The notes below the pieces were generated by a model. The model was not told the DNA's origin. It ran no database searches and saw only the letters and a program-made list of their open reading frames with translations. The translations under genes were made by a program, and so were the position numbers. This document shows, one piece after another, positions 5,139-25,905 of a stretch of 51,252 nucleotides of DNA. Source of the DNA: Patescibacteria group bacterium (GTDB lineage: Bacteria; Patescibacteriota; Doudnabacteria; UBA920; O2-02-FULL-48-8); NCBI GenBank assembly GCA_036278915.1, contig DASUKB010000003.1, positions 1 to 51,252 of the forward strand, given 5' to 3'. Within the stretch, counting starts at the first letter, position 1. Each line of letters starts with the position of its first letter.

Positions 5139-6616
5139 ATATTCTTGACGAAATAAAAAATAAAAATTCAAATCATTGGGAAAGTATGCGTGAGGCGAAT
5201 GCCTTGCAATTATTTACCAACGCCTCAAAAAGGGTCCCGGCGTATAAAGATTTTTTGAAAAAAAATAATATTAATCCCGGGAAAATAAAAACTTTTCAGG
5301 ATTTCCAAAATATTCCGCCTGTAAGCAAGAAAAATTACCTCAGGCAATACGAGCTTAAGGATTTGCTTTGGGATGGTAATTTCAAGAAGCCGTTGGTGTT
5401 TACCTCTACCACAGGCTCTACTGGGGAACCTTTTTATTTTCCGCGGTCTCACGCTTTAGATAAGCAATATTCCTTTCTAGCAGAACTTTTTTTGGAACAT
5501 GGTTACCGGGATAAGCAGAAAGGACCAACACTTATCATTGTAGTCTTTGGTATGGGTGTTTGGATCGGAGGCCTTCTTACTTACCAAGCCTTCGAAATAG
5601 CAGGGAGAAGGGGTGATTATCCAATTTCGCTTATAACTCCCGGTATAAACAAGGACCAAATTTTTGCAATCCTTAAGAAACTAGCCCCACAATTTAAGCA
5701 GACAATAATCGCTGGCTATCCACCTTTTGTTAAAGATATAGTAGATTCGGCTTTGGACATAGGTATTGACCTTAAGAAGCTAAATTTAAGACTATTATTT
5801 GCAGCCGAATCGTTTAGTGAAAAATTTAGAGACCATCTTACTTTATCTGCAGGTATAAGGAACGCGGAGCTTGATACCTTAAATATTTACGGTACTGCAG
5901 ATATTGGGGCTATGGCATGGGAAACTCCTACTGCAATTTTTACTCGAAGGCAAGCAACTGAAAATCAAGATGTTTTTAGGAAAATTTTTGGGACTATTAG
6001 AAAAACGCCTACGCTAGCTCAATATAATCCCAATTTTATAACTTTTGAAGCTCCGAATGGGGACATCTTACTTTCGGGTGATAATAGTATTCCGCTGGTC
6101 CGTTATGAGATAGGTGATAGGGGTAGAACCATGTCATTTAACGATGTTAAAGAAGTCTTTCAATCCGAAGGATTGGATTATTTGGATTTATTTAACAAAG
6201 CAAAATTGAGTGGCTATATTTATCAGTTGCCCTTTGTTTATGTTTATGAAAGAAGCGATTTTTCAGTAGTTTTATCTGGTGCTAATATTTATCCAGAAGA
6301 GATTAAAGAAGCTTTGATTTCAAAAAAGTTAAAACAGGTTTTTACTGGAAAGTTTACGATGGAAATTGGTTATACCCATCGATTTCATGAGACTCTAACT
6401 ATAAACTTGGAACTTAAACCAAACCAAAAATCCAGTAAACAATTGTCGCGATTGGCCCTGTCAGTAATTACCGAGACCCTGCTTGAAAAAAATTCTGAAT
6501 TTCATGCCATACATACAGGTAAGGTTAAAGGTTCAACACCAATTATAAAACTTTGGCCTTATGAAAGCCCTAACTATTTTAAACCAGGGATTAAACAGAA
6601 ATGGGTAAAAAAATAA
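5135..6616 (+). CDS. adenylate-forming ligase (phenylacetate-CoA ligase / coenzyme F390 synthetase-like)
   Basis: FTSTTGSTGEPFYFP P-loop-like AMP-binding motif and YGTADIG. ATGA overlap with the upstream gene. Confidence 0.75.
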   Translation: MNILDEIKNKNSNHWESMREANALQLFTNASKRVPAYKDFLKKNNINPGKIKTFQDFQNIPPVSKKNYLRQYELKDLLWDGNFKKPLVFTSTTGSTGEPFYFPRSHALDKQYSFLAELFLEHGYRDKQKGPTLIIVVFGMGVWIGGLLTYQAFEIAGRRGDYPISLITPGINKDQIFAILKKLAPQFKQTIIAGYPPFVKDIVDSALDIGIDLKKLNLRLLFAAESFSEKFRDHLTLSAGIRNAELDTLNIYGTADIGAMAWETPTAIFTRRQATENQDVFRKIFGTIRKTPTLAQYNPNFITFEAPNGDILLSGDNSIPLVRYEIGDRGRTMSFNDVKEVFQSEGLDYLDLFNKAKLSGYIYQLPFVYVYERSDFSVVLSGANIYPEEIKEALISKKLKQVFTGKFTMEIGYTHRFHETLTINLELKPNQKSSKQLSRLALSVITETLLEKNSEFHAIHTGKVKGSTPIIKLWPYESPNYFKPGIKQKWVKK

Positions 6617-6617
6617 T

Positions 6618-7802
6618 ATGAATATAGAAGAACAACTTAAAAAAATTAATATTGAATTTGATTCTCACCCAGCCATATTTGATTTGGGCAACGAAAAGGA
6701 TCAAAAAATAGTTGCAGAATTATTTGACCAAAAAAAGATTTTGTCTGTCATGGATGATTACAAGGAACAACTTCACGAATTGTTTGCTATAAAAAATCCT
6801 ACTTTGGTTTACGCTCCTGACTTTGAAAAAAAATTCGATGAATATTATTCTACAATAGAGAAGGAAAAATCTATTCAGCTACATGGTAAATGGGTCTACT
6901 TTCCGTGGCTGTTCAATCTAGTCCATATTCTAGACAAAGAAGATTTTTTATCAGTCCGTACTGCCCGAAATCGCTATCTCATTGATCCCGAAGAACAAAG
7001 TAAATTTTATAATACTACTATTGGTATTGCAGGATTAAGCGTAGGTAATAGCGTTGCCTTGGCGATAGTGATGCAAGGCGGGGGAGGTAGATTGAAGCTT
7101 GCAGATTTTGATCGTTTTGCTTTGACCAACACAAATCGAATAAGAGCCGGAATAGAAAATTTAGGCCTTAGGAAAGTTGAAATGGCGGCAAGACAGATTT
7201 ATTGTATTAATCCCTATACAGAAATAGACCTATTTTATGAAGGTCTAACAGACCAGAATATTGAAAAGTTTTTTGGTGACCCAAAACTAGATATTGTAAT
7301 AGATGAATTAGACAGCATGGCCATTAAGCTCCGCATCCGAGAATATGCAAAGAAATATAAAATTGCCGTAGCGATGGGAGCAGATAATGGCGATAATGCT
7401 ATTATAGATATTGAAAGATACGACCTGGATTCGAATATCAAACCATTTCAAGGCAGGTTGGGCGATATTACGTATGATGAACTTAATAATTTAGATAAGT
7501 TTGGCGTTGGTAAAACAATTACAAAGTTTTTGGGACCTGAAAATATTACAGAAAGGATGCTTTACTCGCTCTCAGAGATGGGTAAAAGTATTGTTTCTTG
7601 GCCACAACTGGGCGGAGCGGCCCTTTTAAATGGCATTGCGGTTGCTTATTGCGTCCGTAAAATTCTAAACAAGCAATCTGTTATAGATAACCGTAGCCTT
7701 ATGATTGTTGATGAGCTCTTGGATCCTGATTATAATTCCGAGGAAAATAAAAAAAGGCGAGCAGAAAAGTCAGACAAATTCAAACAAATGTTCAATTTAT
7801 AG
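6618..7802 (+). CDS. ThiF/E1-like protein, Rv1355c (MoeY) N-terminal family
   Basis: HGKWVYFPW..LVHIL...RNRYLI..EEQ..F....IGIAGLSVGNSVA..IV..GGGG.LKLADFD.F.L.N.NR resembles the Rv1355c ThiF-like half as I recall it. Confidence 0.7.
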   Translation: MNIEEQLKKINIEFDSHPAIFDLGNEKDQKIVAELFDQKKILSVMDDYKEQLHELFAIKNPTLVYAPDFEKKFDEYYSTIEKEKSIQLHGKWVYFPWLFNLVHILDKEDFLSVRTARNRYLIDPEEQSKFYNTTIGIAGLSVGNSVALAIVMQGGGGRLKLADFDRFALTNTNRIRAGIENLGLRKVEMAARQIYCINPYTEIDLFYEGLTDQNIEKFFGDPKLDIVIDELDSMAIKLRIREYAKKYKIAVAMGADNGDNAIIDIERYDLDSNIKPFQGRLGDITYDELNNLDKFGVGKTITKFLGPENITERMLYSLSEMGKSIVSWPQLGGAALLNGIAVAYCVRKILNKQSVIDNRSLMIVDELLDPDYNSEENKKRRAEKSDKFKQMFNL

Positions 7803-9446
7803 ATGCCAATAATTACCATAATTCACATCATTGCTATAGCCATAAACATAATTCTAGCTATAGTGGTGATTCGAAATAGGCATAATCCAGCGAATATAAT
7901 ATTCGCTTTTTTGAATTTTTCCATTGCTTTTTGGACGATGGCAAATATCGAAACATCTCTAGTGGAATCTGCTAGCATGCAGCTATTTTGGGTGAGGATG
8001 GTCATGTTTTCCGCTGTTGTTTTATCCTCACTTTTTTACCTTTTTATTAAAACTTTTCCTGAGAGAAAATTTAAATTAAACAATTCAGAAAAAATATTTT
8101 TTTACCTTGTTGTGCCTCTAGTCGCTCTATTTACTCAGACCAGCTACGTATTTTCTGGAGTAACCAAGGCACCTGGCCAGCTTATACCAACGCCAATAGT
8201 AGAACCTGGTATAAGTATTTTTGGTATAACAGTATTAATTTGTATTGGATTAGGAATCATTCTGCTTGCAAGAAGGTACAGATTTTCAACTGGAGAACTC
8301 AAAGCTCAAATGAAGCTGCTTCTAATAGGAGTAGGGTTAATGTTTGCATTAATATTAAGCTTTGACTTCTTCGCTGTTGTTGTATTCCACGTAACTTTTT
8401 TTATCAGTTTAAGTCCGATTTACACAATGGTATTTCTTCTTTTGGCAACTTATGCCATTGTGAAATATCATTTGTTTAATCTTAAAGTTATTGGAACAGA
8501 AGCACTTATTGTTGGGATATCCATCGCATTATTTTCTCAACTTTTCACTGAAGATAATCCTTCACAGCGATGGGTTGAAGGTTTTATTTTAGTTTCTACA
8601 ATCTTGCTAGGTTATTTGCTGATTCGTAGTGTCAAGAAAGAAGTGGAGCAGAGGGAGCAGTTGGAAATTTTAGATAAGGAGCTTGAGGCGGCGAATGAGA
8701 AGCTTAAAGTCCTAGACAAAGCGCGGGCGGAGTTTATCTCCATTGCGTCTCACCAGCTGCGCACGCCGCCGGCAACTATCAAATGGTACCTGGCTGCGGT
8801 CACGGCCGGGGACTTCGGACCCGTGCCGGAAAAAGTCCAGAAGGCAGTCTCCACGGCCGAGATGACCAACAACAGCCAAATTTCGCTTATAGACGATTTG
8901 CTCAACGCCAGCCGCATAGAGCGAGGCAAAATGGAATTTGTGTTTGAGCCCACGGACATTCTCAAAATTACGCAGATCACCGTGGACCAGCTCACGCCCC
9001 AAGCTTTGCAGCGCAAGCAAAAATTACTCTACACGCCTCCCAAGGGCGAATTCCCGCAAGTCAACGCAGACCGGGAAAAGTTGCGGCAAGTTATAAATAA
9101 CCTCGTTGACAATTCCATCAAATACACGCCGACTGGCGGGTGGATTAAAGTTGAATTGGCTAAAACCGCAAAAGACGTGCAGATTCGGGTTTCCGACAAC
9201 GGCCGCGGTATAAAGCCTGGCGAGGAGAAAAACATTTTTACCAAATACGATCGCGGCGGCAAGAAAATGGATTCGCAGGGTCTGGGGCTTGGGCTCTATG
9301 TGGCGAAAGTCATAATCGAACAGCACAAGGGCAAAATCTGGGCCACATCGGATGGCGAAAACAAAGGCGCGACATTTACCATAAGCCTGCCGCTTAAGAC
9401 TGACCTCAAAAATTCCACCTTTGACCTGGCCAAACCTGCCAAATAA
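7803..9446 (+). CDS. sensor histidine kinase with multi-TM N-terminal sensor
   Basis: About 7 predicted TM helices, a coiled coil, H-box FISIASHQLRTPP, and N/G boxes (NLVDNSIKYT, DNGRGI, GLGLGLYV). The start is adjacent to the upstream stop. Confidence 0.9.
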   Translation: MPIITIIHIIAIAINIILAIVVIRNRHNPANIIFAFLNFSIAFWTMANIETSLVESASMQLFWVRMVMFSAVVLSSLFYLFIKTFPERKFKLNNSEKIFFYLVVPLVALFTQTSYVFSGVTKAPGQLIPTPIVEPGISIFGITVLICIGLGIILLARRYRFSTGELKAQMKLLLIGVGLMFALILSFDFFAVVVFHVTFFISLSPIYTMVFLLLATYAIVKYHLFNLKVIGTEALIVGISIALFSQLFTEDNPSQRWVEGFILVSTILLGYLLIRSVKKEVEQREQLEILDKELEAANEKLKVLDKARAEFISIASHQLRTPPATIKWYLAAVTAGDFGPVPEKVQKAVSTAEMTNNSQISLIDDLLNASRIERGKMEFVFEPTDILKITQITVDQLTPQALQRKQKLLYTPPKGEFPQVNADREKLRQVINNLVDNSIKYTPTGGWIKVELAKTAKDVQIRVSDNGRGIKPGEEKNIFTKYDRGGKKMDSQGLGLGLYVAKVIIEQHKGKIWATSDGENKGATFTISLPLKTDLKNSTFDLAKPAK

Positions 9447-10636: not shown

Positions 10637-12394
10637 ATGGCAATTGAAGCACAGGAACTCAAGAAAGTCCTGGTCGCCAAAAAAATCGTAGCCGCCAAAG
10701 CCTGGGATGACCTGGCGCACGAGGCTGAAACCAAACACGAACAAATCGCGGATCTTTTGGTGGAGAAAAAGGTTATCAACGGCGAAAAATTGGCGCAGGT
10801 CATCGCCGCATTCTATGACGTGGAATACACCGACCTCACCGATGGTGCCCAGATTCCCAAGGACTTATTGCTGCTGGTGCCCGAACCCATAGCCCGCCGC
10901 TATGGGATTATTGCGTTTGGCCGCGACAAGAATAAACTCAAGCTGGGCATGACTGATCCAGAGGATTTGCAGACTCGCGAATCCATTAAGAAGAAAACGG
11001 ACCTGCAGATTGTGCCGTACTACATCTCCAAACAGTCGCTTGAGGCAGGACTCAAACAGTACCACAGTTCCCTGGAGGCGGAATTTGCCAAAATTGTAAG
11101 CAAGCAGGACACGGAGAAGGACAAAGACAAGGACAAAGACGCATCCGTCAACGACAAACTCCGCGAGATGGCGCAAGAGATCCCGGTCGTGCGCGTGGTG
11201 GACACGCTTTTGGAGTACGCGATCTTTGAAAAAGCCTCAGACATCCACATTGAGCCGCAGGAAAAAGAAGTCATGGTCCGCTACCGCATAGACGGCGTGC
11301 TTCACGACGTCATGACTCTGCCCAAAGTCATACAGCCGGCGCTGACGGCGCGCATTAAAGTTATCTCAAACCTCAAAATCGACGAACACCGCCTGCCGCA
11401 GGACGGCCGGTTTAAACTGGAGAAGGACGAATACAAAATTTCCTTCCGCGTGTCCACGATCCCAATTTTTGACGGGGAAAAAATCGTTATCCGCTTGCTG
11501 GACGAATCCGCAAAGGCGCTTAGCTTGGAAGAGCTGGGATTTATCCATCACAACTATGACGTCATTATGCGCAACATCAAAAAGCCCCACGGCGCGCTGT
11601 TGGTCACGGGTCCTACCGGATCCGGCAAATCCACGACCCTGTATACGATTTTGTCCATGCTCAACACCAAAAACGTCAACATCTCAACGATTGAAGACCC
11701 GATTGAATACCATATGACCGGCGTCAACCAGATGCAGGTTAACCCAAAAATCGGCCTGACATTTGCCATGGGACTCCGCGCACTTCTGCGGCAGGACCCG
11801 AACATTATAATGATTGGTGAAATTCGCGATGCTGAAACCGCGGAAGAGGCCGTGCACGCGGCCCTGACCGGACACATCGTGCTGTCCACGATCCACACCA
11901 ACAACGCCGCTGGCGGCGTGCCCAGACTTTTGGACATCGGCGTGGAACCGTACCTTATAGCATCCACCCTAAATGTAATCGTGGGCCAGCGCCTGACCCG
12001 CCAGATCTGCCCGGATTGCAAGGAGGAATACAAGGTAGACCATGACTTTGAGGAAAGCCTCAAGAAAGAATTCAATCTCCCCCAGCTTTTGGAAGTTCTC
12101 AAGCGCGAAAATTTTATTGATAAAAAAGCCAGCGGCTTGGCTGACCTTAAATTTTACAAAGGGAAAGGCTGTGAAAAATGCGACCATAGCGGTTACCGCG
12201 GCCGAAAAGGCATATACGAAGTGCTTGAGGTAACCACAGAAATTCAGGAATTGGTGCTCAAGCGCGCCCCAACTTCGCAGATTCAGGAAAAAGGACAGGA
12301 GCAGGGAATGATTCTTATGTGGCAGGACGGATTCATAAAATGCTTACAAGGCATGACCACGATTGAAGAAGTATTAAGAGTATCTAAAGAATGA
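10637..12394 (+). CDS. pilB: type IV pilus assembly ATPase PilB (GspE family)
   Basis: N-terminal T2SSE_N-like domain, Walker A GPTGSGKSTT, Asp box, Walker B IIMIGEIRD, His box, and tetracysteine CPDC...CEKC. Confidence 0.92.
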   Translation: MAIEAQELKKVLVAKKIVAAKAWDDLAHEAETKHEQIADLLVEKKVINGEKLAQVIAAFYDVEYTDLTDGAQIPKDLLLLVPEPIARRYGIIAFGRDKNKLKLGMTDPEDLQTRESIKKKTDLQIVPYYISKQSLEAGLKQYHSSLEAEFAKIVSKQDTEKDKDKDKDASVNDKLREMAQEIPVVRVVDTLLEYAIFEKASDIHIEPQEKEVMVRYRIDGVLHDVMTLPKVIQPALTARIKVISNLKIDEHRLPQDGRFKLEKDEYKISFRVSTIPIFDGEKIVIRLLDESAKALSLEELGFIHHNYDVIMRNIKKPHGALLVTGPTGSGKSTTLYTILSMLNTKNVNISTIEDPIEYHMTGVNQMQVNPKIGLTFAMGLRALLRQDPNIIMIGEIRDAETAEEAVHAALTGHIVLSTIHTNNAAGGVPRLLDIGVEPYLIASTLNVIVGQRLTRQICPDCKEEYKVDHDFEESLKKEFNLPQLLEVLKRENFIDKKASGLADLKFYKGKGCEKCDHSGYRGRKGIYEVLEVTTEIQELVLKRAPTSQIQEKGQEQGMILMWQDGFIKCLQGMTTIEEVLRVSKE

Positions 12395-12398
12395 TGAT

Positions 12399-12470
12399 AA
12401 ATTGACCTAATTACTAATTGACCTAATTTCTAAATTTTAGGTTAATTAGAAATTAGGAATTAGAAATTTC
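12399..12470. repeat. dispersed AT-rich palindromic element (TAATTAGAAATT family), copy A
   Basis: CCTAATTTCTAA (12422-12433) pairs with TTAGAAATTAGG (12446-12457). Both arms are duplicated: AATTGACCTAATTACT then AATTGACCTAATTTCT, and TAATTAGAAATT 12443-12454 then GAATTAGAAATT 12457-12468. Confidence 0.7.
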
Positions 12471-12474
12471 AATT

Positions 12475-13689
12475 ATGCCAGATTACGCCTACGTTGCCAA
12501 AACCAAAGAAGGGGGAGTGGAGAAGAATACGATTTTTGCGCTGAATGAAAAAGCCGCCGTGGATGTGCTGCGTTCAAAGGGGCTTTTACCCGTTTCGGTA
12601 TCAGTGTCCAAAAAGCAATTCGATGTCGGACAGTGGTTAAACTCCTTGTCATCCATAAAATTGCTGGATAAAATCACTTTTTTCAAAAACTTGTCAGTTA
12701 TGATCAAGGCCGGGCTGCCGGTTTCGCGCGCGCTCAAGATTTTAGCGGTGCAGACGACCAGTCCCAAACTTCAAAAAATTATCCTGGACGTTTCAAGAGG
12801 CGTTGAGTCGGGCACGAGCTTTTCGGACTCTATCGCCAAGTATCCCGGAGTTTTTCCGGACATTTCTGTAAGCATGATCCGCGCCGGTGAGGCTTCTGGA
12901 AATCTGGAGGCCAACCTTGAGTATCTTTCCGAGCAGATGCGGCGCGACTACGACCTCATCTCCAAGGCCCGAGGAGCCATGATCTACCCGATCGTGGTCA
13001 TAGTTGCGCTGCTCATTGTCGGATTTATAATGTTTACATTTATCCTACCCAAACTCACGGAAACGTTTAAGGAGTTCGACGTGGCCCTGCCATTGACTAC
13101 GCGCATCGTCATTGGCGTGGTCGATATTTTTGCCAAGTATGGGTTTTATATTATGGGTGTAGTTCTAGTCGGCGTGGGAGGATTTGTTTACTGGCGCAAA
13201 ACGCCAGCAGGCAAAGTCGTCGTACATAAAGCCGTGCTTTACATGCCGATTATTTCTGATATCGTGAAAAAAATTAATGTCACGAGATTCCTGCGGGTGT
13301 TTGTATCACTCATTAAATCCGGCATGCCTATGGTAGAGGCGCTTGAGGTTTCATCCAAAGTCGTGGGCAACATCTACTACCAGAAGGTCATCCGGGACGC
13401 GGCGAGCAACGTCAAAGTCGGACAGTCGGTGGTGACCGCGTTTAAAAAAGAACCAAGACTGTTTGCCACGCTGATTGTGGAAATGATGGAAGTCGGAGAG
13501 GAGTCGGGGACCACGGACGCGGTGCTTGGGGAAGTGGCAAATTTTTACGAAGCGGACGTGGACCAGACCATGAAAAATCTCTCGTCAATTTTGGAACCGG
13601 TGCTCATGATGATCATCGGCGCGGTGGTTGGTTTGCTCGCCGTGGCGCTCATAACGCCAATTTACTCAATTGGCCAGGGTATTAACTAA
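12475..13689 (+). CDS. pilC: type IV pilus platform protein PilC (GspF family)
   Basis: 404 aa with two T2SSF repeats and 3 TM segments. Typical FSDSIAKYPGVFP and ..EPVLMMIIGAVVG motifs are present. Confidence 0.92.
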   Translation: MPDYAYVAKTKEGGVEKNTIFALNEKAAVDVLRSKGLLPVSVSVSKKQFDVGQWLNSLSSIKLLDKITFFKNLSVMIKAGLPVSRALKILAVQTTSPKLQKIILDVSRGVESGTSFSDSIAKYPGVFPDISVSMIRAGEASGNLEANLEYLSEQMRRDYDLISKARGAMIYPIVVIVALLIVGFIMFTFILPKLTETFKEFDVALPLTTRIVIGVVDIFAKYGFYIMGVVLVGVGGFVYWRKTPAGKVVVHKAVLYMPIISDIVKKINVTRFLRVFVSLIKSGMPMVEALEVSSKVVGNIYYQKVIRDAASNVKVGQSVVTAFKKEPRLFATLIVEMMEVGEESGTTDAVLGEVANFYEADVDQTMKNLSSILEPVLMMIIGAVVGLLAVALITPIYSIGQGIN

Positions 13690-13691
13690 AA

Positions 13692-13700
13692 TGGTATAAT
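13692..13700 (+). promoter_or_regulatory. extended -10 promoter element upstream of pilM
   Basis: TGGTATAAT at 13692-13700, followed by the conserved leader described in the findings. Confidence 0.45.
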
Positions 13701-13783
13701 AAATTGAATTTATTCACCCCACCTCCGGCTCCTCCCCTCAAAAGGGAAGGAGGGTTCTAAGTTGAAGGAAACCAAAAAGCAAA

Positions 13784-14863
13784 ATGTTTGGACTATTTGA
13801 AAAAGATAAAATCAACGGCTTTGGCCTGGATATAGAGGAAACCTTGGTTAAGGTGGTCCAGCTTTCGTCTGCTTCCGGAAAAATTTCCGTGGCCGGTCTG
13901 GCCAAATCCGATTTGCCGGAACAGATTATAGCCAACCACGCGATTATCAATCCTGACAAGCTTTCGGCCTATATCCGCAAAACCATGCAGGAGGCAAAAA
14001 TCACGACGCCGTATGTGGTAGTGTCCATACCAGAAGCCAAATCGTTCGTCCGCCAAATCCATTTGCCGCAGATGGAGGAAAAACAAATTGAGACAGCGGT
14101 TCCTTTTGAATTTGAGCAAAACATTCCCGTGCCCATAGATCAGATTTATTTTGACTGGCAAATCCTGACGCAATCCGATGCCGGTTATGAGCTGCTCGTT
14201 ACGGCCACACCCCGAGATTACGTCGATTCATTGATAGATGTTCTGTCTCGGACCAAACTCAAACCTATCGCTTTTGAACTGGAATCCCAGTCCTCGGCCA
14301 GGGCGCTGTTGTCGGAAAAAAATGCCGGCGAAGCCGACCTTGTAATTGACATCTCGGAATTGCAGACTAGTTTCCTGCTCGTAGAAAAAAACAATCTTCA
14401 GTACACTTCAAGCGTTCCGATCGGCGGAAGGTCGTTTACGGAATCAATTTCGCGCAATCTCGGAATCCCGCTTCCCGAAGCCGAAGCAGCCAAACGCGAG
14501 CAGGGCCTCGTGGCCGATAGCAAGAAGCGCAATATCCGCCAGGCGATCTTGCCTATACTGGATAATATCGTGGACGAGATTAGGAATGTTATTCGGTTTT
14601 ATGACGAGCATTACAAAAGCCACCTGCCGTTGAAGCAAGTGCTCATCGTCGGCGGGGGAGCCAAGCTCATGGGGTTGTCGGATTATGTTTCCGCCCGTCT
14701 GAACTTGGGTTCCGTGCATGAACAGAGCCTGGTGACTTTGGGCGATAGCCTCAACCATCTGACGCCCGGGCCCACCCTCGCCAAGGTAGACGGCTTGACC
14801 TACTGCACGGCCATTGGTTTGGGTTTGCGCGCCTTGGGATTTAAAATTGACCTGGAAATGTGA
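13784..14863 (+). CDS. pilM: type IV pilus assembly protein PilM (actin-like ATPase fold)
   Basis: 359 aa. GLDIEETLVKVVQL start, position after pilC, and PilM-like ...VIDIS......LLV / IVGGGAKL motifs. Confidence 0.85.
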   Translation: MFGLFEKDKINGFGLDIEETLVKVVQLSSASGKISVAGLAKSDLPEQIIANHAIINPDKLSAYIRKTMQEAKITTPYVVVSIPEAKSFVRQIHLPQMEEKQIETAVPFEFEQNIPVPIDQIYFDWQILTQSDAGYELLVTATPRDYVDSLIDVLSRTKLKPIAFELESQSSARALLSEKNAGEADLVIDISELQTSFLLVEKNNLQYTSSVPIGGRSFTESISRNLGIPLPEAEAAKREQGLVADSKKRNIRQAILPILDNIVDEIRNVIRFYDEHYKSHLPLKQVLIVGGGAKLMGLSDYVSARLNLGSVHEQSLVTLGDSLNHLTPGPTLAKVDGLTYCTAIGLGLRALGFKIDLEM

Positions 14864-14864
14864 G

Positions 14865-15425
14865 ATGAAAGTTATAAACCTCCTCCCCAAAAGCCAAAAG
14901 AAAGAATTGGAGCTGGAATTCATAAGCCATCAGATACTGGTGTTTTGGATTATGGTTATTATCACTTTGGTGATGTTTGTGGCCGTGGCCTGGGTGTTTA
15001 AATTTTATATCGCGCAGGTTATCGCAAGCAATGACCAGCTCGTGGCCGAATCTCAGGCTAAAGTCGGGTCTGCGGAATACAAATCTTTGCATGATCAGAT
15101 TATCGGACTCAATGGCTCTGCCGCTGACATCAAAAATTTGGCGCGGCACCATTACGACTGGTCCGGTGCCCTTTACCAACTATCAGGGTTAGTGCCGGCA
15201 GAGGTGCAGCTGAACGACCTGCAGTTTGACGCAGCGACCGGAAAGGTCGATATAGACGGCCAGGCCAGAACCCGCCAGGATGTGCTGGACCTTTGGGCCA
15301 ATATTACCAATTCCCAGTATTTTTCTAAAATCAACTTTCCGCTTAGCAATCTTGAAAAGCCTGTTAATAGCAATTTCAGCTTTAGCTTTTATGCCAATAA
15401 GGATAAATTTATTGACCAGCAATAA
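14865..15425 (+). CDS. pilN: PilN-like pilus assembly protein
   Basis: ATG 14865 lies 2 nt after the pilM stop. MKVINLLPKSQKKE.. followed by a single TM is the typical PilN N-terminus. Confidence 0.7.
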   Translation: MKVINLLPKSQKKELELEFISHQILVFWIMVIITLVMFVAVAWVFKFYIAQVIASNDQLVAESQAKVGSAEYKSLHDQIIGLNGSAADIKNLARHHYDWSGALYQLSGLVPAEVQLNDLQFDAATGKVDIDGQARTRQDVLDLWANITNSQYFSKINFPLSNLEKPVNSNFSFSFYANKDKFIDQQ

Positions 15426-15434
15426 CTTTTGCCT

Positions 15435-16040
15435 ATGAATTCTCTCACGAAAATTATAATCACAAGCGTCTGTGCATTCATTGGGGCCATGGCATTGGTA
15501 CTGTTTTTGGCTAAACCGATTTTGGCCCAGATCGGGAGCTTGCACATTCAGGAGGGCAAACAGCAATCCCAATTGGCGCAACTCAACTCCCAATTGGACG
15601 CTTATGACCAAGCTAAAACCGAGTTGAAACAGGCAAATTACCAGGATACTTTGGATGCGGCCGTGCTCGCGCGCGAAGATTTGGCAGAGGTCCTAACAGA
15701 AGTCGAAGCCGACGCGGCCAAGACTTCGGTTACTGAAACGATCACCATAGATGATGCGGCAACTGCCAACACCGGCGCCAAAATCGCGCCAATTGTGCCT
15801 GGCGAGAAAAATCTCACCGAGGTTCCGTACACGCTCCGCTTCAATGCGACCTTTGGAGATACGGTGACATTTCTTCAATACCTGGAGCATCTGTCACATT
15901 TTACCGAAGTTTCTGGACTGGACTTTGCCGCGATAAGCGAACCAACGGACAATCCGGACGTCATCCCGCACGCGGACAACATATCTGGTACGATCTCGGG
16001 CGTATTTTTCGTTAAAAAAGAAACCGTAACTTCTAAATAA
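15435..16040 (+). CDS. pilO: PilO-like pilus assembly protein
   Basis: Single N-terminal TM followed by a coiled coil (QLAQLNSQLDAYDQAKTELKQ). Its position after pilN supports the call. The track ORF starts at TTG 15429. Confidence 0.6.
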   Translation: MNSLTKIIITSVCAFIGAMALVLFLAKPILAQIGSLHIQEGKQQSQLAQLNSQLDAYDQAKTELKQANYQDTLDAAVLAREDLAEVLTEVEADAAKTSVTETITIDDAATANTGAKIAPIVPGEKNLTEVPYTLRFNATFGDTVTFLQYLEHLSHFTEVSGLDFAAISEPTDNPDVIPHADNISGTISGVFFVKKETVTSK

Positions 16041-16044
16041 CAAA

Positions 16045-16320
16045 ATGGCCAGCCTCCCAAACGTCAAATTGCCGCACTTAAGCTTCCGTACAATCACATC
16101 AGCCGTGTTCATTTTGATCGTATTGGTGGAAGTTGGTTTGACACTTAATTATATTTACAAATATTTGAGTCCGGCACCGGTGCCCGGACCTACCCAGCAG
16201 ATAGTCTCTGCGGATCTTAAGTCTTACAATGAAATTTTTACTGATCTTCGCAATCGCGCCAACTATGAACCTCAAGAATTCAACTACGTCAATCCCCATC
16301 CGTTCAAATACGGACCCTAA
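16045..16320 (+). CDS. hypothetical single-TM protein in the pilus operon
   Basis: 91-aa ORF with one TM helix (AVFILIVLVEVGLTL), tightly spaced within the operon. Confidence 0.5.
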   Translation: MASLPNVKLPHLSFRTITSAVFILIVLVEVGLTLNYIYKYLSPAPVPGPTQQIVSADLKSYNEIFTDLRNRANYEPQEFNYVNPHPFKYGP

Positions 16321-16711
16321 ATGCCGGAATGTTCAGGCTGGCATGTCGCTGATTGAAGTCGTGGTCAGCCTTTTTTTGGTGCTGGTTTTGCTGTTGGTGT
16401 ATGTCGCAGCCTTAAATACCGTGGCACTGGTCAAACGGAATAATTATTCCGACTTGGCCTTTCGAGTAGCGAGCAAGCAGATGGAGACATTGCGCGGTAC
16501 GCCTTTCGGATCGCTTGGCGATACCTCCGGCACTGCTATTTCGGACGCGATGCTCTCGCAAATCCCGTCTGGTGCTGGAACATATGCCATATCGGATGAT
16601 CCCGATATGGATGGAGTCAAGGACATTACAGTCACCGTAACCTGGAACGACGGCAAGGATAAGTCGGCAGTACTCCAGACACGGGCCGCAAGCGGAGGAC
16701 TGAACCCATGA
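16229..16711 (+). CDS. prepilin-type minor pilin (start codon uncertain)
   Basis: QAG/MSLIEVVVSLFLVLVLL is a class III signal (G-1, E+5). The only in-frame ATGs are 16229, 16265 and 16343. See the finding on the out-of-frame ATG at 16321. Confidence 0.65.
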   Translation: MKFLLIFAIAPTMNLKNSTTSIPIRSNTDPKCRNVQAGMSLIEVVVSLFLVLVLLLVYVAALNTVALVKRNNYSDLAFRVASKQMETLRGTPFGSLGDTSGTAISDAMLSQIPSGAGTYAISDDPDMDGVKDITVTVTWNDGKDKSAVLQTRAASGGLNP

Positions 16712-17262
16712 GGAAGTTTTCACGAGGGCAATCCGCATTCACCTTGATTGAGGTTATTATCACAATCGCGCTTACGGTAATGATCGTTGCAGTAATAGCA
16801 AATATGTTCTTGACCCAAAGCAGGCTTTATCGCTCTCAAAACGCAAAGCTTGATACTTCAGCTTCCGTGCGCGCGGGGTTAGACAGCATCGACGACGATG
16901 TCCGGGCCGCAGACCAGGTGCTGGCGTCGTATTCAACGTTTACAGCCTCAAGTCAGACTCTAATTCTACAAATCCAATCGGTGGATTCAACCCAAGCCTT
17001 AGTCGCCGACACTTATGACTATGTCGTTTATACTTTGTCCGGCACGGATTTGACTCGGCAAATTTTTCCGGATGCGGCAAGTGTAAGAATTGCCACCACG
17101 CGGACCGTGGCCAGACATGTCAGCGATTTGTCGTTTGTGCTCAACAGCGCAGATTATGCTGACGTGACCGAAGTGGCCACCAGCCTTACTTCAAGTGAGT
17201 CAACAGGCAACCAGACTGTTGCCTTTACCTCGGATTCAAATTCTAAGCTGCGGAACAATTAA
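16708..17262 (+). CDS. prepilin-type minor pilin / pseudopilin
   Basis: MRKFSRGQSAFTLIEVIITIALTV, an N-terminal cleavage/methylation motif. ATGA overlap with the upstream gene. Confidence 0.8.
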   Translation: MRKFSRGQSAFTLIEVIITIALTVMIVAVIANMFLTQSRLYRSQNAKLDTSASVRAGLDSIDDDVRAADQVLASYSTFTASSQTLILQIQSVDSTQALVADTYDYVVYTLSGTDLTRQIFPDAASVRIATTRTVARHVSDLSFVLNSADYADVTEVATSLTSSESTGNQTVAFTSDSNSKLRNN

Positions 17263-17264
17263 TT

Positions 17265-19055
17265 ATGCATAAACACGCAAATCATCCGCAAACCAGCGAA
17301 CAGGGGCAGATCATAATCATAGCCTTAGTGTTTGTGCTGATTACGATAAGCTTGGTCGGTTCGCTGGTGGCGTACACGTTTATCCAGGTCCGCGCGCAAA
17401 AACAGTCGCAGGCCAGACTTGAAGCCCTAAACATCGCGGAAGCGGGCATCGAGGCAGCGCTTTGGAAACTCAACAACCAGGCTGGATACGCGGGAGAAAC
17501 CGGCACGTCATTTGGCGCTGGCGTATATGATGTGGCGACTACAGACATTTCTGGAGACCAAAAACTCCTTACTGTGGACGCTTATGTCCCAAATTCTTCG
17601 GCGCCGCTGGCCCACCGGATAGTCAGTGTAACTGTAAGCACCGGTACGACCGGCGTTGGCTTCAACTACGGCGTGCAGGTCGGACAGGGAGGGTTGGATA
17701 TGGATGGCAGCGGCACTATTAACGGCAATGTCTATGCGAACGGTCCTATTACAGGTGATAGTTCCTCTGTCATCACCGGCACGGCCATCTCCGCCGACAG
17801 TCCGGCTTTAAGCGCCGACCAAAGCAATGGCAGCGGTACCCCGGCAAACAATATTGCTTTTGCCAACGCCAGCGCCACGCAGGATATCGCCCAAAGTTTC
17901 AGTCTTACGGGCTCCGATCCTTTGAATGAAATCCAGCTTTATATAAAAAAAGTCGGATCTCCCGCTGACGCCACGGTCAAGATAGTCAATGATGCCAGCG
18001 GAAACCCGGGCACCACGGTTTATGCCAGCGGCACACTCTCGTCAGCAAGCGTCACGACATCTTATGGGTGGATCAACGTAACATTTACTTCCAACCCGCT
18101 GCTTAATCCCGGCACTACTTACTGGTTGGTCGTGGATGCTGCCAGTAACAGCTCCAAGTACTATATGATTGGCGCGGACGGCGGCGGAATCTACGCCAAT
18201 GGTATGGCAAAAATCGGACGAATGGGAAGCACCTGGAACAACACCACACCTTCGGGAATTGATTATTTTTTCAATATATTTTTGGGCGGCGTTAATGGAT
18301 TGATTGCCGGATCGTCAGGCAGTCAATATAACCAGTTGCATGTAGGAACGGTTTCCGGCACGGCAGAGGCCCACACAGTGAATTACACGAATGCCACTGG
18401 TGAAATTTTTTGCCAAACCGGTACTGGCAACAATAAATCATGTTCGGCGCTTGCCTCGGATCCGGTGTATGTGGATTTTCCGGTGTCTGACGCCAATATT
18501 GCGCAGTGGGAAAGCGAGGCCGAAGCCGGCGGGACTTACAATGGCAATTATACCGTGGGTTTTGCCGGAGCATCTTTAGGCCCGCAAAAAATAGTCGGGG
18601 ATCTGACGGTTTCAAATGGCGGCACGCTCACTGTCACTGGGACATTGTACGTAACGGGGAATATTACCTTAAACGGCGGAGGCGAAATCAAACTCACCCC
18701 GGGATACGGAAGTAACGACGGAGTCATTGTCGCGGATGGCACTGTAACTGTTTCTGGAGGAGGGCACGCCACGGGCTCGGGAACATCTGGAAGTTATATA
18801 ATGATGATCTCAAATGATTCCTCAACCAGCGCTATGTCTGTGGCTGGAGGAGCGGGCGCTGTGATTATGTTTGCTCCTAAGGGGACTTTGGCCGTTTCGG
18901 GAGGCGCGTCATTGAAAGAGGCGACCGCGTACCGATTAACCGTCGGCGGCGGTTCCAGTGTTACTTACGAGTCCGGTCTGGCTAATTCGGAGTTTTCGTC
19001 CGGTCCGGGCGGCAGCTGGGTCCTCCAGGCCCAATCCTGGCAATTATTAAGGTAA
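17265..19055 (+). CDS. large PilX-N-like pilus-associated protein (putative tip or adhesin component)
   Basis: GQIIIIALVFVLITISLVGSL..Q.......EALNIAEAGIEAALWKLN resembles the PilX N-terminal domain. The rest is a long Gly/Thr/Ser-rich beta-type region. Confidence 0.7.
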   Translation: MHKHANHPQTSEQGQIIIIALVFVLITISLVGSLVAYTFIQVRAQKQSQARLEALNIAEAGIEAALWKLNNQAGYAGETGTSFGAGVYDVATTDISGDQKLLTVDAYVPNSSAPLAHRIVSVTVSTGTTGVGFNYGVQVGQGGLDMDGSGTINGNVYANGPITGDSSSVITGTAISADSPALSADQSNGSGTPANNIAFANASATQDIAQSFSLTGSDPLNEIQLYIKKVGSPADATVKIVNDASGNPGTTVYASGTLSSASVTTSYGWINVTFTSNPLLNPGTTYWLVVDAASNSSKYYMIGADGGGIYANGMAKIGRMGSTWNNTTPSGIDYFFNIFLGGVNGLIAGSSGSQYNQLHVGTVSGTAEAHTVNYTNATGEIFCQTGTGNNKSCSALASDPVYVDFPVSDANIAQWESEAEAGGTYNGNYTVGFAGASLGPQKIVGDLTVSNGGTLTVTGTLYVTGNITLNGGGEIKLTPGYGSNDGVIVADGTVTVSGGGHATGSGTSGSYIMMISNDSSTSAMSVAGGAGAVIMFAPKGTLAVSGGASLKEATAYRLTVGGGSSVTYESGLANSEFSSGPGGSWVLQAQSWQLLR

Positions 19056-19104
19056 AAGAAAAATCCTCAATCTTGCGCTGCGAATCCAGCCAAACAAAAG
19101 AAAA

Positions 19105-19132
19105 AAACGGAACAAGTCCGTTTCTTTCTTTT
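19105..19132 (+). terminator. rho-independent terminator of the pilus operon
   Basis: AAACGGA(19105-19111)/TCCGTTT(19117-19123) followed by CTTTCTTTT. Confidence 0.65.
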
Positions 19133-19138
19133 GGCTCG
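19123..19138 (+). repeat. island-flanking direct repeat (left copy, putative att core)
   Basis: TCTTTCTTTTGGCTCG compared with TCTTTCTTGGCTCG at 25824-25837, in the same orientation. Confidence 0.5.
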
Positions 19139-19279: not shown

Positions 19280-19786
19280 TTAAGGTTCCAGCTTGAAAAT
19301 TAGATCGCCCAAGGGAGTACTGATCGGATTAACGTCTAGCTTTTCTAGTTTGTTCTCCTTTGTAGACAGAATGACGTTTAGCATAGGATTCAAGGTCTTG
19401 GAAATACCAATATTAAGACTACTTTTTAAATACTTGTTGTCTCCTTTTCCTATTATTAAATTTAACCGATGCGACCCTAGATCATATCCCTTAACCCCAG
19501 AAATTCGTTTAAGGGTCTCGTGCATCACATAATGCCCATGCTTTTCAGGGTTTGTGTATCCTAATTTTTTTGCAATCCCGACTCTGCTATTTGACCAAGT
19601 GGAATTATAGTTCGGATTTGAACTCGTAAAGATTATTTCTTTTCCTTCTAGATGCAAGCTCCAATGTACACCCTTCCAATGAATCCACCGAATTATAACC
19701 TGATCACCTCTTTGGAACACCTCAATAACAGGAAATTGCTCTTCGTTATATTGAATTGAAATTACTGAATTTTTCATATTATTCAT
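19280..19786 (-). CDS. hypothetical protein (168 aa), translationally coupled partner of the 540-aa gene
   Basis: The ATG overlaps the stop of the upstream gene (GATGAATAATATG). I recognise no domain. Confidence 0.6.
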   Translation of the reverse strand: MNNMKNSVISIQYNEEQFPVIEVFQRGDQVIIRWIHWKGVHWSLHLEGKEIIFTSSNPNYNSTWSNSRVGIAKKLGYTNPEKHGHYVMHETLKRISGVKGYDLGSHRLNLIIGKGDNKYLKSSLNIGISKTLNPMLNVILSTKENKLEKLDVNPISTPLGDLIFKLEP

Positions 19787-21401
19787 CGTCTACGGTTGGA
19801 AGCCCTAAGTCTTCTGTATAAAATTCGTGAAACTTGCGATCTAGGAAGTTCCCAATGGCCGGTGGCCCTGAGTTATTTTCCTTATAAACCTTTGAAATCT
19901 CATTGCTGACCCCGGTTGCGGGATTAGCCTTAACCCTCTTTATGATTTCATCTACTTCAATATAATCCTTTACAAAATAATACCCTTCAAGTTCTTCTAT
20001 TGAAATCAAATAATATTCCATATCCTGTATTCCTGGATTATTCTCTTCAAGTCCAGTTAAAGCTTTTTTTATATCTTCATCATATATACTAGTGGACAAA
20101 AGAGGCACATCATAAAAAATGCCTATACAAATTATTTTTTTATCCTTGAGTGATTTTAATTCTTCGTAGTTAGGTATATCCCTAACCCGATCATACATTT
20201 GCTTAATAGTTTTAATTATCTTGCTAAAAATTTCTTTCCGTATTAACGCTGGATCACCTGTTTGTAGGGTTGGTAATGGAAACTGGTATCCCTTAGCCTC
20301 AATTAAAATAACAGAATCATCTCGGTCAACTATCCAATCAAAAAACTCTTTCTTGTCGTGGCTACTACCATACTTAAAACCTGGTTTTACATCGGACTCT
20401 CCGTAAATATCGGACAAAACAAGACCCACATATCGTTCAAACAGTAAACCAAAATATTCACGAAATTTAGCTTTTAAATCATTTTCAAATATCCAATATA
20501 GGCCGCGAAACGAAGCTTTTACATAAGCACTCAAACTTGGAATAATATAATCATTTGCCCCAACCTGAATTACTGGTTTTTCCCAAAGTGGATTATACCG
20601 ACTTTTTGTATATTCTGACGGCAAATTATTACTATTGTATTTGGAATCTAAATCCCGAAATAATTCTGGCGTTACTGATAATTTATTGAGGATGGATCTC
20701 ATTTTCTCGTCTTTCAGAACCTGACTAAGACCGCCGGTTATTGTTGACTCTGTAAATCTACCCAGGTTAAATCTTGGGCTAGACATTCCTGCCGCAAAGA
20801 TTGCGAAGCTCAATTTTATATATTCATCTATGCTAATACCGTATTTGTCTTTTAAAACCTTATCTAAGTCTAACACTAAATCACTAGGTAATTCAGCGGG
20901 AATCTTTTCAAAGATTAACCATTGTCTTATGAATACATCCTTAATATCCATTTGACTAGTAAATTGCTGAAAATACATTGGAACCAAAAAAGAAGAAAGA
21001 TTTCTCACCCTCACCCCTTGCACAAGTCCATTATGATATATGTTAAATAATGCCAAAATATTATCACGATCTTTAATACTTAAGCTTTTGTAATTGTTTG
21101 CACCTGAAATTATAAATGAATTTGCAATATATTCTAATGCAAACTCAGTGATAAATATTTTAGTCAATTTGTGAATAATAAACCCGCTCCTTTCCTTTTT
21201 CAAAGCTTCGTTCTCAAGGAAATTTTTATCGTTAAGCTTCATTGAAATTTCTCCTAATACCACTAACGCTTCGTCTAATTTATAACCCTTAAGAGCATTA
21301 CAAAACTGCTCCTGGGTAACCTTTAGTTCACCGGAGTTACATAATGCCGAGAGTCTTGCATCGGCTTCTAAAATATAATTCCCCAATTGATCTCTAAACA
21401 T
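19779..21401 (-). CDS. hypothetical 540-aa protein with C-terminal PD-(D/E)XK-like nuclease motif
   Basis: Long clean ORF. FERYVGLVL ... EFFDWIVDRDDSVILIEAKGYQF fits E / D / ExK spacing of the restriction-endonuclease fold. I do not recognise the N-terminal ~330 aa. Confidence 0.6.
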   Translation of the reverse strand: MFRDQLGNYILEADARLSALCNSGELKVTQEQFCNALKGYKLDEALVVLGEISMKLNDKNFLENEALKKERSGFIIHKLTKIFITEFALEYIANSFIISGANNYKSLSIKDRDNILALFNIYHNGLVQGVRVRNLSSFLVPMYFQQFTSQMDIKDVFIRQWLIFEKIPAELPSDLVLDLDKVLKDKYGISIDEYIKLSFAIFAAGMSSPRFNLGRFTESTITGGLSQVLKDEKMRSILNKLSVTPELFRDLDSKYNSNNLPSEYTKSRYNPLWEKPVIQVGANDYIIPSLSAYVKASFRGLYWIFENDLKAKFREYFGLLFERYVGLVLSDIYGESDVKPGFKYGSSHDKKEFFDWIVDRDDSVILIEAKGYQFPLPTLQTGDPALIRKEIFSKIIKTIKQMYDRVRDIPNYEELKSLKDKKIICIGIFYDVPLLSTSIYDEDIKKALTGLEENNPGIQDMEYYLISIEELEGYYFVKDYIEVDEIIKRVKANPATGVSNEISKVYKENNSGPPAIGNFLDRKFHEFYTEDLGLPTVDDE

Positions 21402-21466
21402 AAGCTATAAATTATTTATACTATTTACAAAATACAAAAGCCAGGCCGCCTAACCTAGCTTTGTTC

Positions 21467-21624
21467 TATTCCCACCTATTCCCACCATCTTTCCGCTCTT
21501 TTCCGCCTTTTTCCGCCATCTATAGTTCCCAGTGATTTCCAGTTATTTAATGGCATAAAATCCACCATTTTCCACCATTTCAAATTCCGTGATTTTCAGT
21601 GAAATTTTCCACGTTTTTCCACGT
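21467..21624. repeat. array of 10-bp-period tandem word doublets with TTCC (minus: GGAA) core
   Basis: TATTCCCACC x2 (21467-21486); (T/C)TTTCCGC(C/T) x3 (21489-21517); TTCCCAGTGA/TTTCCAGTTA (21526-21545); TCCACCATTT x2 (21561-21580); TTCCGTGATT/TTCAGTGAAA (21585-21604); TTTTCCACGT x2 (21605-21624). Confidence 0.85.
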
Positions 21625-21633
21625 ATTTTTCAG

Positions 21634-22746
21634 TTATACTTTTGCTTTACTTTCCAAATAAAAGCTAAATTGCTTTAAGTCTGTCCCGTCAATTAACCTA
21701 ACATTGGCTTTATGGGCCAATTCTTTTGCTGATTTCGTAAACATTGAGTTTGTTATGACCCAACCCTCATCTGCACCATAAAACTGAACCGCACTGGCGA
21801 CTTCTTGAACGGCTTTATTCCCAACGGTTCCGTCATACCTTTTGGCCTGGATGATTATAGTCTTACCATTTCGTTTAGCAATCAAATCTGCTCCCTGGTC
21901 TCCTGTAGCCGGTGTTCCAGCAATATCCGTAAAGCCATTTTCCTTCAGGAGCCGTGCCAGGTAAGTTTCAAACTCCGTGCCCGACATAGGTGAAAAATCA
22001 ACTTGCGTAATGGGTCTACTTTTTTTAGTCTTGTATTCTCGCTTAAATCTTTGCTCTAAGTAGGCAGATAGCTTTTTTAACTCCTCGGGCATTGACCAAT
22101 CATACTTTGACCATCTTTTAAATTGATCTTCATCGTACCGCTCTTTTTGAGCGATTTTTCGTATCACTGTCTCAATTTCTTTTGGTAATACATCCCAGTG
22201 TTCATCTCCGTAATCATCTATGACTGAAACCTTACGATAAGTGACTTCCAAAAATTGAGATATTAGATCAGAATATTTTTCTTTAAATAAATCAAATTTT
22301 GTTTCTATTTTCGCTTGAGCTTTTTCTCGTTGCTGCTCTTCAAGTTTCTGGTGATAATCTCTGAATCGTTTTAGTAAATTATCTTTAAGTTGTAAATATT
22401 CTGAATTAGCTCTTCGTTGCCAGTTGGATAACCATTCATAATTAGGTGACATATTTATATCACCTTCGGCTTCAGCAATGTCTCTTATACAATCCCGAAC
22501 TGAATTTTCAATGTAATAAGAACGATGGTAGCCGTGATTAAGTTTTTTTAAATGAGATTGGATGATATCCTCATTTCGTTCTTCCAGTGTTTTGGACTTA
22601 TCAATTAACCTGTCACTCCATTTTTCTTTTGCCTTTAAAGCTTTCTCTTTGTTGTTTTTTGACGCATTAAGAGAACTGGATGCAGATGATATTGCCCAAA
22701 AAATAGCCAAAACTATAAGAAATAAGATCCCTATTACTTCTTCCAT
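21634..22746 (-). CDS. membrane-anchored Mrr-type restriction endonuclease domain protein
   Basis: N-terminal TM (GILFLIVLAIFWAI), a long charged coiled-coil region, and C-terminal SGTEFETYLARLL...GDQGADLIA...IIIQAKRY....VGNKAVQEV (Mrr_cat D...(Q/E)xK core). Confidence 0.8.
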   Translation of the reverse strand: MEEVIGILFLIVLAIFWAISSASSSLNASKNNKEKALKAKEKWSDRLIDKSKTLEERNEDIIQSHLKKLNHGYHRSYYIENSVRDCIRDIAEAEGDINMSPNYEWLSNWQRRANSEYLQLKDNLLKRFRDYHQKLEEQQREKAQAKIETKFDLFKEKYSDLISQFLEVTYRKVSVIDDYGDEHWDVLPKEIETVIRKIAQKERYDEDQFKRWSKYDWSMPEELKKLSAYLEQRFKREYKTKKSRPITQVDFSPMSGTEFETYLARLLKENGFTDIAGTPATGDQGADLIAKRNGKTIIIQAKRYDGTVGNKAVQEVASAVQFYGADEGWVITNSMFTKSAKELAHKANVRLIDGTDLKQFSFYLESKAKV

Positions 22747-23232: not shown

Positions 23233-23344
23233 GGCTCTTGCGAGCCTGCCACCCTTTCGGATGGCAACCATTGGAATAGTAGCAAGACGATGACCGTCTC
23301 TATTTCCAATGGTTTTGTTAGCCGTGCTTCGGGAAGATCCGAAG
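23233..23344 (-). ncRNA. candidate structured RNA / leader: four adjacent stem-loops
   Basis: On the minus strand: CTTCGG/CCGAAG (23327-23344); CCATTGGAATAG/CTATTTCCAATGG with inner GACG/CGTC (23268-23312); GCCAUCC-GAAA-GGGUGGC (23248-23265); GGCUC-GCAA-GAGCC (23233-23246). Two loops are GNRA on the minus strand only. Confidence 0.4.
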
Positions 23345-23410
23345 TTTAGGCCGCTAATTATGGAGTAATTTTACCACAAAATCCGCCGAGATGGTAGACG
23401 GTAGGCGGGA

Positions 23411-24291: not shown

Positions 24292-25905
<1,614 letters not shown>

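Follow-up and report, generated by a model that had tools for sequence, protein, structure and literature searches.

Two overlapping genes on a 51,252-nucleotide stretch of DNA from a Patescibacteria group bacterium (contig DASUKB010000003.1, assembly GCA_036278915.1; the whole stretch is called the window below) raise the question of whether a nuclease-like protein of 540 residues and its 168-residue neighbour form an undescribed two-gene defence system, as a first-pass annotation of the sequence had proposed. The larger open reading frame (ORF) lies at 19779..21401 (-) and the smaller at 19280..19786 (-), or 165 aa when counted from a second ATG at 19777. Both reading frames and their overlap are confirmed by the ORF list and by the junction sequence, gacGATGAATAATATGaaa, in which the TAA of the large gene (19781-19779) sits within the ATG-AAT-AAT-ATG of the small one; the first ATG of the 168-aa ORF gives an 8-nt overlap and the second, chosen in the public gene call (165 aa), a 1-nt spacer. 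Coupled translation is compatible with either start. Since relatives were found for each, we take both ORFs to be genuine genes and not chance reading frames. The evidence presented here makes it likely that the 540-aa protein is a divergent single-gene anti-phage protein of the GapS1 superfamily, carried as cargo on a genomic island, and that the 168-aa protein is an unrelated passenger and no required subunit. The pair would then not be a new two-gene defence system, because the 540-aa gene belongs to a known single-gene family and has its 168-aa neighbour in the window alone.

The 540-aa protein matches the NCBIfam profile NF047931 (antiphage_GapS1, GapS1 family protein) with an E-value of 6.9e-26 and 91.1 bits, against a curated cut-off of 320 bits for membership. 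The alignment runs from residue 104 to 425 of 540 and from profile position 55 to 369 of 455, i.e. about 320 residues, and so reaches well beyond the generic nuclease core at residues 311-407. Much of the N-terminal region of ~330 residues, previously thought unassignable to any family, is covered by this homology from residue 104 onward. A word-indexed search returned 29 relatives at 33-63% identity. Metagenome-assembled genomes of Patescibacteria (Saccharibacteria, Staskawiczbacteria, Paceibacterota, Falkowbacteria) are the source of most relatives of the 540-aa protein, and Zixibacteria and Cyanobacteria of a few. All 25 diverse relatives in alignment A2 match NF047931 (best E 4.9e-29), each of them below the curated threshold like the 540-aa protein itself, and remoter relatives on Pseudomonas and Streptomyces plasmids, in Nostoc and in Herbiconiux match it as well. 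The 540-aa protein gave no match in Pfam, PADLOC (2023) or PHROGs, and a sequence search of the PDB returned nothing useful. In one of the loci examined, L033, the GapS1-like gene is directly followed, in convergent orientation, by that of a further and highly divergent paralogue of ~600 aa (5278-7083 (-); E 3e-13 with the hidden Markov model (HMM) of A2; NCBIfam GapS1 E 2e-6).

GAPS1, described in 2023-24 in the Gamma-Mobile-Trio (GMT) paper of Mahata et al. (bioRxiv 10.1101/2023.03.28.534373), is a single anti-phage protein with a C-terminal PD-(D/E)xK domain, in which the substitutions D313A and K328A abolish defence. The same work reports that the trigger of the Vibrio protein is the T7 major capsid protein Gp10, that activation leads to dormancy and not to death, and that E. 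coli homologues just 24-29% identical to GAPS1 still protect as single proteins. The 540-aa protein is thus homologous over ~320 residues to a validated single-protein system, and it cannot be called undescribed. It resembles GAPS1 in being a single polypeptide in the range of ~450-550 aa with a C-terminal PD-(D/E)xK domain, in a profile match that includes non-nuclease regions, in the spacing of the catalytic Asp and Lys (15 residues in both, D355-K370 here and D313-K328 in GAPS1), and in being carried, together with further defence genes, on mobile genomic islands. It differs in belonging to a separate deep clade (91 versus 320 bits) that is found in Patescibacteria, Zixibacteria and Cyanobacteria, whereas GAPS1 occurs mostly in Klebsiella, Vibrio and E. 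coli. The carrier here is a tRNA-targeting serine-recombinase island and not a GMT island, a small overlapping gene follows the 540-aa gene in the window, and the clade is known from sequence and a structural model. An apparent mention of GAPS1 in an anti-defence encyclopaedia preprint proved to be a text artefact.

The nuclease core, delimited by the alignments and by an AF2 model, is encoded at 20181..20471 (-), with the active-site codons for E322 at 20436-20438, D355 at 20337-20339, E368 at 20298-20300 and K370 at 20292-20294, all on the minus strand. D355, E368 and K370 are invariant in alignments of 27 and of 25 sequences; the position of E322 is Glu in 26 of the 27, and Glu or Gln in all 25. 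The E/D/ExK arrangement noticed at first reading is therefore real and conserved. The model, built on 27 sequences, has a pLDDT of 89.6 and a pTM of 0.89, and places E322 on a helix (311-333), D355 on a strand (351-359) and E368 and K370 on a second strand (363-373), followed by a helix (384-407). The predicted core is in the canonical alpha-beta-beta-beta-alpha order of the restriction-endonuclease fold; the PD-(D/E)xK domain is C-terminal, and the N-terminal and middle regions are mostly helical.

Foldseek comparison of this model with the PDB returned restriction-endonuclease-fold nucleases exclusively (Upx, Nt.BspD6I, Can2/Card1, the R2 endonuclease, McrC and Shedu). The top match was Upx (9wuf; E 3e-4, probability 1.00), and all matches had TM-scores below 0.3, so that the full architecture is without a solved counterpart. 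Upx is a 1212-aa single-protein defence nuclease with two PD-(D/E)xK domains joined by a regulatory middle domain, and it is activated by a phage protein (PMC13099982). The 540-aa protein shares with it a single-protein organization and a canonical C-terminal PD-(D/E)xK core. The TM-score is, however, 0.28 on the query and 0.16 on the target, there is no match at the level of sequence, and membership was rejected, as a protein of 540 aa with one conserved motif set does not correspond to the two domains of Upx. The likeness to Shedu (DUF4263) and Mrr-type (PF04471) proteins lies in the restriction-endonuclease fold and the defence-island context, with the Shedu nuclease and McrC among the weak structural matches (E of at least 0.2), but the 540-aa protein has no DUF4263, Mrr_cat or PADLOC match, and the true Mrr_cat protein of the island is a separate 370-aa neighbour. 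Shedu membership was rejected on the lack of any Pfam or PADLOC match at E<=1 together with the weak structural match (E 0.2). Motif, model, Foldseek results and GapS1 match agree that the protein has the PD-(D/E)xK fold and belongs to a defence-type family.

By analogy with GAPS1, the 540-aa protein would act as a self-contained sensor-effector within a Patescibacteria-enriched branch of the family. Its helical N-terminal and middle region may recognize a phage component or product and thereby activate the C-terminal, Mg-dependent PD-(D/E)xK phosphodiesterase (E322, D355, E368, K370), which would in turn halt either the infected cell or the phage cycle. The anti-phage role, the sensing of a trigger and dormancy as the result are accordingly put forward as expectations, the nature of trigger, substrate and outcome being extrapolated from GAPS1.

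Whether the two genes form a module was assessed on 46 loci with relatives of the 540-aa protein and 18 with relatives of the 168-aa protein, i.e. 64 fetched loci which with the window make 65 sources. The window and the first 54 loci, translated in all six frames, were scanned with HMMs of both families (A2, A3); the ten later 168-family loci were judged by whether any gene of GapS1-like size was adjacent. No 168-family gene was detected by the HMM scans within ~6 kb in any of the 45 other GapS1-like loci, of which ~34 are distinct and have at least 700 nt of downstream sequence. Conversely, the scans detected a GapS1-like gene in 0 of 8 168-family loci, and a neighbour of GapS1-like size was present in 0 of the 10 further ones. 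Among the 65 sources, the two families stand together in the window alone; the pair fails to co-occur elsewhere, an outcome that the first-pass annotation had itself named as refuting, and the proposed two-gene module is not supported. The overlap, from which translational coupling and a fixed stoichiometry had been deduced, is compatible with the former but says little about the latter, since short overlaps recur around these genes.

The genes that follow the GapS1-like gene give the same picture. At the ~34 distinct loci there is either no gene behind it, or a convergent one, or one that is not homologous from locus to locus, which is genomic evidence for single-gene status. In the closest homologue (L001, 63% identity) another, non-homologous gene overlaps the stop codon, and in L002, L010 and L016/L018 there is nothing, or a convergent gene, downstream; the homologues in L002, L010 and L016 are 42-55% identical to the 540-aa protein. 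Same-strand downstream genes encode proteins of 249 aa (L001, 4-nt overlap), 382 aa (L004), 344 aa (L008), 357 aa (L026), 354 aa with an HNH_5 domain (L039) and 183 aa (L028), and elsewhere of 233, 213, 266, 205 and 141 aa. These partners were compared with each other, with the 168-aa protein and, apart from that of L028, with the profile libraries of Pfam, PADLOC and NCBIfam, where HNH_5 in L039 was the sole match. The L028 protein is a probable P-loop NTPase, judged by a Walker A-like motif (GQPGIGKT). The sole recurrent downstream partner found is a protein of 244-249 aa, 43% identical between L001 (7617-8366) and L035 (928-1662), which overlaps the stop of the GapS1-like gene, carries an N-terminal Cys-rich motif (CxxC...SHI[IV]P) and has no Pfam, PADLOC or NCBIfam match. 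Rx4-6H (HEPN-like) strings in several downstream partners were discounted, since we estimate that a protein of 300 residues would contain roughly one such string by chance.

Within the window, the two genes probably form one transcript. A terminator-like hairpin at 21437..21462 (-), identified by consensus scan and from the sequence, would separate the pair from the Mrr gene upstream, and leave ~35 nt (21402-21436, including TATAAAT) that may hold a promoter of the pair's own. From 21401 to 19280, the consensus scan of the minus strand gave no terminator-like site. A hairpin with 17-nt arms, 94% complementary, lies about 150 nt past the 168-aa stop (19095..19133, no strand assigned; repeat search and consensus scan) and is likely to be a terminator common to the pair and to a chromosomal 596-aa gene. 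It is this arrangement, one hairpin setting the pair apart, none between the genes and a strong one after them, that leads us to infer co-transcription.

The arrangement could also be that of a lineage-specific two-component variant, in which the nuclease has gained the 168-aa protein as an accessory (an inhibitor or antitoxin that keeps it inactive, say, an adaptor that broadens the range of triggers, or a second enzymatic effector), held at a fixed ratio by translational coupling. The stop/start overlap or 1-nt gap, the lack of a terminator-like site between the genes and the single hairpin behind them all fit such a variant, as does the presence in 12 GapS1-like loci of a tightly linked downstream gene of some kind. 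The pairing is, however, peculiar to the window among the 65 sources, the closest homologue has another partner while those of L002, L010 and L016 have none, and GAPS1 and its E. coli homologues act as single proteins (bioRxiv 10.1101/2023.03.28.534373). We therefore regard a two-component variant as unlikely.

The contexts of the 168-aa family bear on the same question. Relatives stand tightly behind other genes: a DUF4160-like 308-aa protein, an 85-aa protein and a secreted-looking 175-aa protein (each with a 4-nt overlap), and a trypsin-like protease (9-nt gap). One member follows a GmrSD-type enzyme at 395 nt, another lies beside a type III restriction-modification pair, and further members are in housekeeping-looking neighbourhoods. 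Both the tight spacing and the proximity of some members to GmrSD-type or type III restriction genes can be counted in favour of an accessory function, but the upstream partners are mutually unrelated and partly housekeeping- or membrane-like, which suggests that the tight spacing reflects compact genomes. A broader version of the idea, that the 168-aa protein is a portable accessory of an undescribed His-triad family, coupled behind varied effectors (the GapS1-like nuclease here, a trypsin-like protease or a DUF4160-like protein elsewhere) which it modulates or complements, would make the window pair a true two-component variant of GapS1 type; we consider it quite improbable. Next to the 168-family member with the type III restriction-modification pair lies a 343-aa gene (L047, 6298-7329 (-)), the product of which resembles the 344-aa protein shared by L008 and L038; in L008 the latter (7601-8635 (+)) follows the GapS1-like gene. 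The L047 likeness is N-terminal and was seen by eye with no formal alignment, and it suggests a common pool of cargo genes that may shuffle between islands.

In its own right, the 168-aa protein is a member of a conserved, structurally unplaced and uncharacterized histidine-triad family. It had appeared to be an orphan, as a word-indexed search found only the query itself; this was overturned by an exhaustive HMMER search of 1.84 billion representatives, which returned 64 relatives and the query's own entry at E<=1e-3. Of these 65 proteins 21 reach E<=1e-10, and almost all are 160-200 aa long. In alignment A3, H41, H45, A72, H83 and G160 are invariant and Y86 is nearly so. The conserved motifs read H-x-[TS]-[LIV]-H and [KR]-H-G-x-Y, and the three histidines common to all members may belong to a catalytic or metal site. 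The AF2 model has a pLDDT of 95.6 and no significant match in the PDB by Foldseek (best E 0.08, TM ~0.2), with one unnamed viral protein in BFVD at TM 0.52. The protein has no match in Pfam, PADLOC, NCBIfam or PHROGs, its family members have no Pfam match worth noting, a PDB sequence search gave nothing useful, and tblastn against phage and plasmid sequences gave no match. A 2H phosphoesterase was considered and rejected, as there is a single H-x-[TS] motif (H41-x-T/S43), the other invariant His lying in [KR]-H83-G; 2H structures are absent among the PDB fold matches of the model. The 168-aa protein is probably an independent passenger, possibly enzymatic, at the distal island end, where gene content varies, and not a required subunit of the nuclease.

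Several observations weigh against reading the locus as a single-gene GapS1-type system with a passenger. A score of 91 bits is far under the 320-bit cut-off and leaves the 540-aa protein outside the curated subfamily, and its presumed function is carried across a deep divergence, from Proteobacteria to Patescibacteria. The equivalence of D355 and K370 to D313 and K328 of GAPS1 is likewise deduced from spacing and profile coordinates and not from a displayed alignment. About one-third of the homologues have a tightly linked, though differing, downstream gene, and the GapS1-like family could often be working with interchangeable partners. On the side of the small gene, the contexts read number 18 and many contigs are short. 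Finally, the 8-nt overlap, the absence of an intergenic terminator and the similarly low third-position GC content (GC3) of the two genes (0.30 and 0.37) would fit a functional operon in this lineage.

The pair is carried on an island of ~6.7 kb bounded by an att-like direct repeat. The left copy (19091..19138 (+)) marks the island end and itself ends in TGGCTCG, the last 7 nt of a tRNA-Asn; the right copy (25787..25837 (+)) overlaps the 3' end of this tRNA and the C-terminal codons of a recombinase gene. The repeat is imperfect, ~50 nt long, and takes in TGGCTCG plus sequence just past the tRNA end. A plain repeat search of the window did not find it, but gapped local alignment did, with a score of 38 against 17.7 +/- 2.2 for shuffled sequences (0 of 300 reaching 38); applied to L001, L004 and L009, the same kind of search gave nothing significant. 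The integration target is the tRNA-Asn (GTT) at 25831..25905 (-) (ARAGORN; Rfam tRNA, 72.8 bits). The recombinase, a large serine recombinase of 526 aa at 24292..25872 (+) (Pfam Resolvase, Recombinase and Zn_ribbon_recom; NCBIfam CcrB/XisF-like), runs at its 3' end antisense into the 3' part of the tRNA. As its last codons overlap the att-like repeat, the attachment site falls inside the end of the element's own recombinase gene. The same tRNA/recombinase overlap was also seen in L001, L004, L009 and L024.

The second cargo of the island, an independent one, is a 370-aa Mrr-type protein at 21634..22746 (-), with an N-terminal hydrophobic segment, a long charged region and a C-terminal Mrr_cat domain (PF04471, E 1.5e-32; PADLOC ZorD nuclease domain, PDC-S02, mREase_IV); no homologue was found in the other GapS1-like loci scanned. 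GC content drops from 0.52 to 0.33-0.40 across 19-23 kb. Mrr_cat domain, serine recombinase, tRNA-Asn and GC drop together support the first-pass description of integrative-island cargo at a tRNA beside an Mrr-type nuclease, and helicase, ATPase and methyltransferase genes are indeed absent within the island. What stands of that interpretation overall is a defence-type PD-(D/E)xK protein as cargo of a tRNA island, and what does not is its novelty and its two-gene nature.

Recombinase homologues flank GapS1-like genes in at least eight loci (L001, L002, L004, L009, L010, L016, L024, L033), and small islands of this serine-recombinase type, inserted at the 3' ends of tRNAs, would repeatedly carry the GapS1-like gene. 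Such linkage to a backbone of recombinase and LOOT RNA (below) might also mean that the 540-aa nuclease serves the mobile element itself, through addiction, exclusion or DNA processing in island transfer, its likeness to GapS1 reflecting common ancestry only; the sub-threshold GapS1 score leaves room for this. Many homologues, however, have no recombinase nearby (e.g. L003, L006, L007, L008, L012, L013, L036), plasmids from unrelated phyla carry some of them, a classic Mrr-type defence nuclease shares the island, and validated GAPS1 homologues are likewise cargo of mobile islands (bioRxiv 10.1101/2023.03.28.534373). An element-serving nuclease is therefore, in our judgement, very unlikely, and anti-phage defence is the role that we favour.

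Other features belong to the island backbone or its surroundings and not to the pair. A LOOT RNA motif (RF03000) lies at 23233..23352 (-), full length and at 74.3 bits against a gathering threshold of 46.4. It recurs in seven GapS1-like loci (L001 5790-5911, L004 4748-4870, L009 5429-5550, L010 4591-4714, L022 2990-3109, L024 2686-2818 and L026 3463-3581), in every scanned locus that has the tRNA and serine recombinase on that side, in either orientation and between recombinase and cargo; the recombinase loci L002, L016 and L033 are without it. In 8 of 8 cases the motif is followed on its own strand, after ~20-65 nt, by the start of a small ORF for a hydrophobic, transmembrane or signal-type peptide, which suggests that the islands carry a small membrane-protein gene with LOOT as its 5' leader. 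The main text of the paper that reported the motif makes no mention of it. Between the Mrr stop codon and the terminator-like hairpin, at 21466-21628, are five successive, differing 10-nt units, each in tandem 2-2.8 times and related to (A/T)GGNGGAAA on the minus strand; one possibility is that they are protein-binding sites, and no equivalent was found upstream of the homologous genes. The left chromosomal flank (10637-19055) holds a type IV pilus- or pseudopilus-like cluster, recognized by eye from the translations, with a PilB-like ATPase, a PilC-like platform protein, PilM/N/O-like proteins and prepilin-like small proteins; the 596-aa protein of this flank is Gly/Thr-rich, and its gene ends just before the island.

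These results remove a false lead, in that an apparent new two-gene system resolves into a known single-gene defence family and a passenger. What remains of interest is the 168-aa family with its unplaced structure, the family of Patescibacteria islands and the LOOT RNA that these carry. The 168-aa family, well folded by prediction, with invariant histidines and no relative in the PDB, is a sensible candidate for structural genomics irrespective of any link to defence. Sequences from the clade of the 540-aa protein, being so distant from the curated GapS1 model, could widen the detection models of NCBIfam, DefenseFinder and PADLOC. Above all, the homology extends GapS1-like proteins to the Patescibacteria (CPR bacteria), the immune repertoire of which is poorly charted and which seem to acquire the gene through small serine-recombinase islands directed at tRNAs.

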